A stretch of DNA of 38,069 nucleotides, from assembly GCA_943359415.1 (NCBI GenBank), contig CALRHQ010000001.1, positions 1-38,069 of the forward strand, in the 5' to 3' direction. Both the position numbers and the translations under genes were made by a program. Position 1 is the stretch's first letter; each line of letters begins with the position of its first letter. Positions 33,579 to 33,806 of the stretch are shown one piece after another. The DNA comes from Candidatus Peribacteria bacterium (GTDB lineage: Bacteria > Patescibacteriota > Gracilibacteria > UBA1369 > LOWO2-01-FULL-3). The notes under the pieces were generated by a model that was not told the origin of the DNA, ran no database searches, and saw only the letters and a list, made by a program, of their open reading frames with translations.

Positions 33579-33671
33579 GGAGAGGTACTCAAGAGGCTGA
33601 AGAGGCGGGTTTGCTAAACCTGTAGGGGGACGTAAGTTCCCGCGAGGGTTCGAATCCCTCCCTCTCCGCCA
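33579..33671 (+). tRNA. tRNA-Ser (anticodon GCU), CCA encoded
   Basis: Hand-folded. Acceptor stem GGAGAGG/CCTCTCC. D-stem CTC/GAG. Anticodon loop TTGCTAA with GCT at 33613-33615. Long variable arm. T-arm GAGGG-TTCGAAT-CCCTC. Discriminator G plus CCA. Confidence 0.9.
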
Positions 33672-33709
33672 TTGAAAGATAGCTCTGCAAGGCAGAGATG
33701 GCTTTCAAT
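33672..33709 (+). other. Imperfect hairpin directly after tRNA-Ser(GCU)
   Basis: TTGAAAG (33672-33678) pairs with CTTTCAA (33702-33708). CTCTGC (33683-33688) pairs with GCAGAG (33692-33697) around an AAG loop, with a 4x4 internal loop. No U-run follows. Confidence 0.45.
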
Positions 33710-33721
33710 GGATAAGATTGG

Positions 33722-33772
33722 TAGGGATGAGAAGTTTATGCCCAGAAGGGGTAAATCCCTCCCTCTCCGCCA
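33722..33772 (+). other. tRNA-Ser-linked module B: same conserved arm as module A + short loop + exact copy of the upstream tRNA 3' end
   Basis: The last 19 nt (33754-33772) equal tRNA positions 33653-33671, including the tRNA-specific CCTCTCC acceptor strand. A T-run follows, and the ppcA ATG is 35 nt downstream. Confidence 0.7.
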
Positions 33773-33806
33773 TTTTTTCCTACTCAAGATTTACCCGCCA
33801 AATCCT

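Follow-up and report, generated by a model that had tools for sequence, protein, structure and literature searches.

Knowledge of the tyrT repeats of Escherichia coli and of RtT RNA goes back to the late 1970s to 1990s, but they have been regarded as a curiosity of enterobacteria without an explanation. To our knowledge, accounts of RtT have been limited to enterobacteria and to tRNA-Tyr. The '3.14 repeats', a Rho-dependent terminator within them and a 171-nucleotide (nt) rtT RNA reportedly go back to work by Egan and Landy in 1978, Küpper et al. in 1978, Rossi et al. in 1981 and Bösl and Kersten in 1991. The small RNA RttR (Rfam RF00391) has been described as a product of one tyrT repeat unit (PMC3318445), and is possibly tied to processing of the tyrT transcript and to the stringent response (bioRxiv 10.1101/2024.07.17.603846). 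Here, we describe a module of ~50 nt that follows the tRNA-Ser(GCU) gene in a 38,069-nt stretch of a Candidatus Peribacteria genome (CALRHQ010000001.1; hereafter the window) and closes with a copy of the 3′ end of that tRNA. What is new here is a compact and very widespread variant; the enigmatic RtT kind was already known.

Results

Two serine tRNA genes are followed by the same module

The tRNA genes of the window were placed with ARAGORN and Rfam, both of which assign tRNA-Ser(GCU), with an encoded CCA, to positions 33579-33671 of the plus strand, the strand of all features described below. The last 19 nt of this gene, from A58 of the T-loop onwards (33653-33671; AATCCCTCCCTCTCCGCCA), recur at 33754-33772, so that 82 nt separate the two repeats, as the preliminary description of this locus had recognised. 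Between them lie a strong hairpin, AGGGAUGAGAAGUUUAU and a short GCCC...GGGU hairpin. The second repeat closes the module (33723-33772), which opens with the arm AGGGAU (33723-33728), the Watson-Crick complement of AUCCCU in the tail (ATCCCT in the DNA, 33755-33760), that is, of the 3′ strand of the T-stem together with A59 and U60. We refer to this helix as P1. Its 5′ arm is followed by a single-stranded core, GAGAAGUUUAU (33729-33739), which with the preceding AU makes up the 13-nt motif AUGAGAAGUUUAU, and then by a G.U-closed hairpin, P2 (GCCC-AGAAG-GGGU; 33740-33752). An invariant A and the 19-nt copy of tRNA nt 58-76 complete the module (33753-33772), the tail beyond P1 consisting of the acceptor 3′ strand, the discriminator and CCA. 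The sense strand is thereby predicted to re-form the T-stem of the tRNA around a foreign 'loop'; both this pairing of the 5′ block with the tail and the known relative, E. coli RtT, had been overlooked in the preliminary description.

A sister module (30609-30669) stands behind tRNA-Ser(UGA) (30508-30597, ARAGORN). It comprises the arm GAGGGAU (30609-30615), the core (30616-30626), a long-form P2 with a GCGAAGC tip (30627-30649), AA (30650-30651) and the tail repeat (30651-30669), in which AATCCCTCTCTCTCCGCCA from the tRNA end (30579-30597) is found again. Blocks of 21 nt (AGGGATGAGAAGTTTATGCCC) and 17 nt (GAAGGGGTAAATCCCTC) are identical at the two loci, and the sole C/T difference between the two 19-nt repeats follows the tRNA at each locus, so that each repeat carries the acceptor letters of its own tRNA. 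The internal loop shrinks from 13-14 nt at the tRNA-Ser(UGA) locus to 4-5 nt at the tRNA-Ser(GCU) locus. These points agree with the preliminary description; the joint that it proposed between a conserved and a tRNA-specific part exists as well, although its position needed refinement, the conserved part ending in ...GGU-A and the tRNA-derived part starting at T-loop A58 (AAT CCC...). Counted from tRNA end to tail end, the window units are single and measure ~75 and ~120 nt. The window contains exactly two occurrences each of the 19-mer GGGATGAGAAGTTTATGCC and of a 25-mer tail pattern, for which chance would predict 0.03 and 0.00.

Extent and tRNA linkage of the family

We scanned one genome per species with the pattern GGGATGAGAAGTTTATGCC, and metagenomes with a pattern that leaves the arms free (ATGAGAAGTTTATRCC-N5-35-GGYAAAT); loci from these scans carry L-numbers, and L184 denotes positions 1286000-1288000 of E. 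coli NC_000913.3. All counts given for the family (175, 183, ~180 and ~215) are among the matches listed by the scans. The genome scan returned 62 loci, 60 of them true copies; L004 and L007, which have neither hairpin nor tail, are chance matches. Its carriers include many lineages of the Candidate Phyla Radiation (CPR)/Patescibacteria, Oscillospiraceae and other Bacillota, Saprospiraceae and Bacteroidia, Micavibrio and Bdellovibrionales, and metagenome-assembled genomes (MAGs) labelled Gammaproteobacteria. The metagenome scan added at least 120 loci, and the further loci (~180), mostly from Patescibacteria/CPR, include well over 100 at which the module tail follows the upstream tRNA, across 13 tRNA isotypes. 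The module is thus, as had been supposed from the two window copies, a recurrent tRNA-linked unit and not a random duplication, and the possibility that it is part of a longer repeat unrelated to tRNAs does not apply. In IMG/VR, two patterns gave no match apart from a single chance match, within a coding region and without a tRNA; distant BLAST searches of PLSDB and INPHARED returned only noise. The literature searched, including surveys of non-coding RNAs, yielded no account of the module sequence or of a tRNA-downstream motif of this kind.

Modules sit from a few to ~150 nt downstream of a co-oriented tRNA gene. A same-strand tRNA lies within 400 nt upstream of 139 of the 175 modules that have enough upstream sequence, none of the 175 has only an opposite-strand tRNA, and most of the 36 for which no tRNA was detected carry tRNA-like tails. 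Serine tRNAs make up just over half of the partners, followed by Gln, Asn, Val, Tyr and others. In 109 of 145 cases, tail and tRNA agree over 15 nt or more, counted from nt 59, and the identical part invariably begins at T-loop A58, whereas its end varies: it commonly falls within ~3 nt of the tRNA end, and at some loci the repeat continues through the spacer into the next unit. Tandem arrays have units of 55-122 nt, with the last unit sometimes cut inside GGGAUGAGA, and copy number differs between related genomes (for example, L022 and L055). The preliminary description had further noted that the module ends in CCATTTTTT and lies ~35 nt upstream of a coding sequence; this holds in the window, where the distance to the ppcA ATG is 34 nt, but these are local features, and elsewhere in the family modules lie between tRNAs or have no T-run.

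Whether the tail carries CCA depends on the gene: CCA is present in both gene and tail at 23 loci and in neither at 26, with only 2 exceptions, and tails whose gene does not encode CCA run on into the genomic trailer. Since CCA appears in the tail only where the gene encodes it, the copy was made from DNA or from a precursor and not from mature tRNA. This tally rules out a retro-copy from mature tRNA, an origin suggested by the 18-19 nt length of the repeat, which is close to that of retroviral primer-binding sites.

Several loci show further peculiarities. In L052 (2028-2830), an array behind tRNA-Ser(UGA) holds units whose tails match the neighbouring tRNA-Ser(GCU) and which keep the Ser(UGA)-type spacer, which suggests recombination or gene conversion between units; one module tail at this locus has CCA, although its tRNA gene does not. 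In L019 (~1345-1375), L046 (~972-1000) and L056 (1590-1625), the T-stem and acceptor strands of the module tail are separated by an inserted small palindrome (CCTGCCTGC-CG-GCAGGCAGG or similar), which may represent another miniature insertion. L001, L015, L022 and L055 have almost no long open reading frames (ORFs) when read with genetic code 11, a pattern that fits the use of code 25 (Gracilibacteria/Absconditabacteria), and the analysis of neighbouring genes at these loci is therefore incomplete.

Architecture, covariation and constraint

Read 5′ to 3′ on the tRNA strand, the family consensus consists of an arm of 5-9 nt complementary to the T-stem 3′ strand, often reaching nt 66-68; AU, GAGAAGUUUAU, an R-CC...GG-Y hairpin of 11-84 nt, and AA; and finally AU, the T-stem 3′ strand, the acceptor 3′ strand, the discriminator, and either CCA or genomic trailer. 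The 13-nt motif is identical in ~215 copies, and among 116 aligned copies from the metagenome scan, 114-116 have the same base at each core column. In these 116 copies, P1/P2 cells are paired in 90.6% of cases compared with 81.4% in shuffles, the covariation score is 0.256 compared with 0.116, and none of 500 shuffles reached the observed pairing or score. Arm pairs take up to six standard types (for example AU 45, UA 14, CG 11, GC 5, GU 3 and UG 1), and the family contains 33 distinct T-stem sequences with a matching arm for each; a tRNA-Asn T-stem, ACUGG/CCAGU, goes with the arm GACUGGAU.

The 5′ arm is not a copy of the T-stem 5′ strand. It is identical to that strand of the tRNA in only 33 of 110 cases, G.U positions of the tRNA appear as A-U in the module in 26 of ~32, and for arm position -6, pairing with nt 66 is seen in 59% of cases but identity to nt 48 in only 8%; together these observations rule such a copy out. 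P2 varies in length and covaries across the family, with mostly C(GNA)G triloops or GCGAAGC at its tips. Its closing pair is G.U, A-U or G-C, and the structure is therefore placed on the sense strand; the same variation disfavours an alternative UUUA/UAAA pairing.

Orthologous copies indicate which parts are under constraint. L027, a Peribacteria MAG with 80% nucleotide identity to the window over 6.7 kb, has both modules in the same places; their cores are kept apart from one G-to-A change in the P2 closing pair, their spacers have diverged, and one of the tails has lost its acceptor part. The order ArgRS-tRNA-Ser(UGA)-module is retained down to 58% ArgRS identity. Because the cores of orthologous copies are kept while spacers and the acceptor parts of tails decay, the core is maintained, and a full copy of the tRNA end marks a recent duplication and can decay.

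Relationship to RtT and sX4

We reached the E. coli tyrT locus via a weak Rfam RtT match to the window module. There, the 178-bp repeat can be written as GGGGAAGG-AU-GAGAAG-(~85 nt with GCA and GAA mini-hairpins)-U-AAU-CCUUCCCC-ACCACCA. A model built from compact modules alone finds all three E. coli units (18.9 bits, E = 2e-4). Both elements lie directly downstream of a tRNA and in its orientation, and the units of both close with a copy of the 19 nt at its 3′ end (A58 to CCA); in E. coli, where the tRNA is tRNA-Tyr, the units end in AATCCTTCCCCCACCACCA. In both, an arm complementary to the tail is followed by AUGAGAAG (AGGGAU-GAGAAG in the window, GGGGAAGGAU-GAGAAG in E. coli), and the E. 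coli arm pairing, GGGGAAGGAU/AUCCUUCCCC, takes in the T-stem 3′ strand and acceptor nucleotides. This P1 helix, of 10 bp, is present in the RttR fold, and the annotated 3′ end of rttR is the CCA of the tail. GNA-triloop mini-hairpins inside the unit, tandem arrays of variable copy number and a partial last unit are likewise common to both; the tyrT repeat is present in 1-9 copies in 4700 of 5426 E. coli genomes. The two differ, however, in size and interior. The E. coli unit has ~85 nt between its arms, including a degenerate piece of tRNA-Tyr, whereas the window module measures ~50-60 nt; the E. coli unit has neither UUUAU nor the simple R-CC..GG-Y hairpin, and reads UAAU where the module has UAAAU. 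A tandem array of ~170-178-nt units is absent from the window, where units are single. The tyrT-tyrV spacer (L184, 1368-1483) holds a diverged fourth unit, GGAAGG-GUGAGAAC...GAAUAAUCCUUCCCCCACCACCA, whose GUGAGA variant is similar to the terminal part of the Xanthomonas sX4 model.

The sX4 model (RF02223) itself consists of a tRNA-Ser and a trailer ending in GGGGGGUGAGA, which aligns with the module arm and UGAGA. In the window, L012, L042, L052 and L061, weak sub-threshold sX4 matches run from the tRNA into the beginning of the module; they score 31-36 bits against a threshold of 70, mostly on account of the tRNA, and the model ends inside the core. In Rfam 15, only tRNA reaches its gathering threshold in the window, and no ribozyme or riboswitch matches even at E <= 10. 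Hammerhead, hairpin and other known ribozymes, K-turns, T-loops and UAA/GAN motifs were considered; they are without Rfam support and we do not claim them.

Flanking features and the ppcA question

The additional hairpin that the preliminary description noted between tRNA-Ser(GCU) and its module is real. It spans 33669-33712 (CCATTGAAAG..AGCTCTGC-AAG-GCAGAGAT..CTTTCAATGG), takes in the CCA of the tRNA, folds at -22.9 kcal/mol (z = -5.9), and is terminator-like, without a T-run after it on the plus strand. Its inner part, AGCTCTGCC-nnn-GGCAGAGAT, is kept in L027 (~3988-4030), L056 (1-40) and L058, and its outer stems vary among these relatives yet stay complementary through compensatory changes, with A-run and T-run flanks. 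On the other side, TTTTTT directly follows the module, and the T-run and 34-nt leader (33773-33806) up to the start codon of ppcA (PEPcase_2; 33807) lie outside the conserved family.

This position upstream of ppcA had prompted the suggestion that ppcA, or ppcA with its MFS neighbour, was acquired by targeting of the tRNA. The evidence does not support this. No integrase, transposase or reverse transcriptase is found in the 38-kb window, whose sizeable ORFs are all housekeeping genes (ArgRS, a LysRS-type synthetase, DnaB, GuaA, MurA-like, PCD, PAP2-DHODH, PEPcase_2, MFS, Ctp and others); GC content stays at 0.33-0.39 throughout and is flat across ppcA-MFS; and ppcA lies near a module at only 1 of 183 loci, in the close relative L027. 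Given also that no mobile gene recurs beside modules, an island junction or an acquisition of ppcA, and with it ppcA-MFS as island cargo, is unsupported. The module travels with the tRNA and not with ppcA.

Two other features of the window deserve mention. Just 5′ of tRNA-Ser(UGA), the stretch 30328-30500 is GC-rich (0.47 against a background of ~0.33) and consists of two ~76-nt tandem units, each closing with AAGCCTACAAAATA and containing internal GCGAGCGCACGGCGCGAGCGCG repeats; it is retained in L056 and L059 at 87-90% identity, has no Rfam match and folds no better than shuffles (z = +0.55). Between the two modules, a single ORF (30978-32630) joins a PAP2 phosphatase domain to dihydroorotate dehydrogenase, a fusion kept in L027, L056 and L152.

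Discussion

We consider there to be roughly an even chance that the segment is a compact RtT-like tRNA-trailer element, a mimic of the T-arm that is probably co-transcribed with its tRNA, processed, and propagated by local duplication. Under this model, the element would be transcribed within the tRNA transcript and would fold as a mimic of the T-arm and acceptor end; the tRNA-processing machinery would then trim it to a small RNA ending in the 3′ end of the tRNA itself, as RttR is annotated in E. coli. New copies would arise through duplication of the tRNA 3′ end, with P1 subsequently kept or re-made complementary. As candidate roles, it could stand in for tRNA, as a decoy or mimic, towards a factor that recognises T-arms and 3′ ends, or could act as a processing or insulating element. 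Processing of the module by RNase P, RNase Z or the CCA-adding enzyme is plausible; tRNA-like minihelix RNAs that are processed by tRNA enzymes, such as mascRNA and the tRNA-like domain of transfer-messenger RNA (tmRNA), share with it a helix of the T-stem/acceptor type with a 3′ NCCA end. The module differs from these in forming only the T-stem and 0-4 acceptor pairs and in having its T-loop swapped for another conserved motif, and its Rfam matches are at noise level.

Several observations weigh against the trailer element. Under the Rfam RtT model, the window module reaches just 18.1 bits (E = 0.59), against a gathering threshold of 45, and the folding energies of the two window modules taken alone are not significant (z = -0.9 and -1.6). 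The terminator-like hairpin between tRNA-Ser(GCU) and the module means that co-transcription is not assured. The presence of A-U in the arm where the tRNA has G.U suits templating at the DNA level as well as it suits selection. GNA triloops and GCGAAGC are typical of stable DNA mini-hairpins and not of RNA tetraloops (PMC3201870, PMC13037366), and the patchy, multi-copy and array-forming distribution looks selfish.

Some of these features lend weight to a selfish, non-autonomous DNA element, which we regard as possible but distinctly less probable. Here, the sense strand would fold as single-stranded DNA, for example at replication forks, and an enzyme acting in trans (of the HUH or tyrosine-recombinase type, or a host enzyme) would act at the loop just 5′ of A58 in the hairpins of both T-arm and module. 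The unit of nt 58-76, spacer, arm, core and hairpin would be copied or re-inserted, giving arrays with partial terminal units. Such a mechanism accommodates the left boundary fixed at A58 with a variable right boundary, including arrays of 1.x units (L006, L011 and L012), the DNA-type loops at the P2 tips, an arm that is the exact Watson-Crick complement, the mosaic units of L052, and a near-identical core across a patchy, cross-phylum distribution. The classic '3.14 repeats' of E. coli, with 1-9 copies per genome, count towards it as well, as do the arrays, which are common. Mobilome sequencing, moreover, found exonuclease-resistant coverage over tyrT-rttR raised under stress (bioRxiv 10.1101/2024.07.17.603846). 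In being small, protein-less, intergenic and multi-copy, with a strand-specific hairpin that has a variable tip and conserved unpaired bases, the module, whose loops are of the DNA type, also resembles repetitive extragenic palindromes and bacterial interspersed mosaic elements (REP/BIME), palindrome-associated transposable elements (PATEs) derived from IS200/IS605, and integron attC sites. Those elements, however, have no fixed link to tRNA genes, carry no copy of neighbouring sequence and usually have the gene of their cognate enzyme somewhere nearby. Clustering of neighbouring ORFs and Pfam searches across the ~180 loci found no cognate transposase (DDE, Y1 HUH/RAYT) and no recurring transposase or recombinase, but only housekeeping synteny (RecG, ComF-like, ABC, DnaX, L19) and large serine recombinases at 6 loci. 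Further against a selfish element, no copies away from tRNAs with unrelated tails were seen among the listed loci, orthologous copies have kept their positions over deep divergence, and the spacer lacks conservation between copies and in most cases is not duplicated. The behaviour of the spacer also makes a simple target-site duplication that includes it, or a simple att model with an element-borne spacer, unfit. A trailer RNA and a selfish single-stranded DNA are not mutually exclusive.

Considerably further down, we think it quite improbable that the repeats are the scar of a site-specific integration (an attL/attR pair at the tRNA 3′ end), or that the tail acts as a surplus attB to which integrases are diverted. 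Integrases that target tRNA genes leave duplications of the tRNA 3′ end that begin in the T-loop, and the module shares with attL/attR pairs just such a direct repeat. In L038 (2588-4171), L037 (7694-7999), L141 (919-2355) and L076 (8785-9612), a gene for a large serine recombinase converges on the module and ends just beyond its tail; these genes belong to two lineages with 33% mutual identity, and integrative elements may use the tRNA-end copy of the module as their attachment site. L037 and L038 also have Phage_rep_O and DndB-like genes. Such recombinases nevertheless occur at only 6 of ~180 loci, the tRNA-Ser(GCU) repeats enclose just 82 nt without any integrase in 38 kb, and the module has no cargo. 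Unlike scars, it places between its repeats a core that is invariant across phyla, with a covarying hairpin and an arm complementary to the repeat partner, and its copies match 33 different T-stems.

Still more remote is a stand-alone guide RNA of a type V or TnpB-like nuclease or of a transposon, in which arm, core and hairpin would be the scaffold, the tail the guide, the 3′ end of the tRNA gene the protospacer, and the T-loop TTCG the protospacer- or transposon-adjacent motif. The geometry fits, in that the tail is sense-identical to what directly follows TTCG within the tRNA gene, and the copy in the module is preceded by GGUA instead. The supposed guide, however, is base-paired with the 5′ arm, the scaffold would measure only ~30-45 nt, no known Rfam family matches, and the window has no Cas12-, TnpB- or IscB-like ORF, nor does one recur among the ~180 loci. 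A CRISPR array or solitary repeat-spacer was rejected, as the array units are whole-unit duplicates with identical 'spacers' and cas genes were not found. Finally, a neutral, chance duplication of the tRNA 3′ end, without family or constraint, has a negligible probability: short tRNA-end duplications do occur, but two identical modules in the window and ~215 copies elsewhere, with an invariant core and covarying helices, already refute it.

The kinship of the trailer element with RtT has consequences beyond this genome. It suggests that RtT is an inflated member of a much broader family that extends from the CPR to Firmicutes, Bacteroidota and Proteobacteria, for which the minimal form of ~50 nt supplies a compact and testable consensus for RtT-like function and copying behind many tRNAs. 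For genome annotation, duplicated tRNA ends of this family should not be taken for integration scars or for signs of horizontal acquisition of the adjacent genes. As a tentative and rather speculative extension, the compact module and E. coli RtT could be the two ends of a pan-bacterial superfamily, free of protein genes, that rebuilds the tRNA T-arm around the 13-nt motif, and that reflects either (a) an unknown copying machinery or (b) a general tRNA-mimic RNA. In the former case, the motif would serve as the recognition or catalytic site of this machinery, which might work on single-stranded DNA or on the RNA itself, placing copies of the element downstream of any tRNA and re-templating both arms from the resident tRNA; this would constitute a new mobility mechanism. 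In the latter case, the processed RNA would mimic the T-arm and 3′ end of tRNA and modulate a pathway that senses tRNAs, and the old association of RtT with the stringent response would thereby be accounted for.

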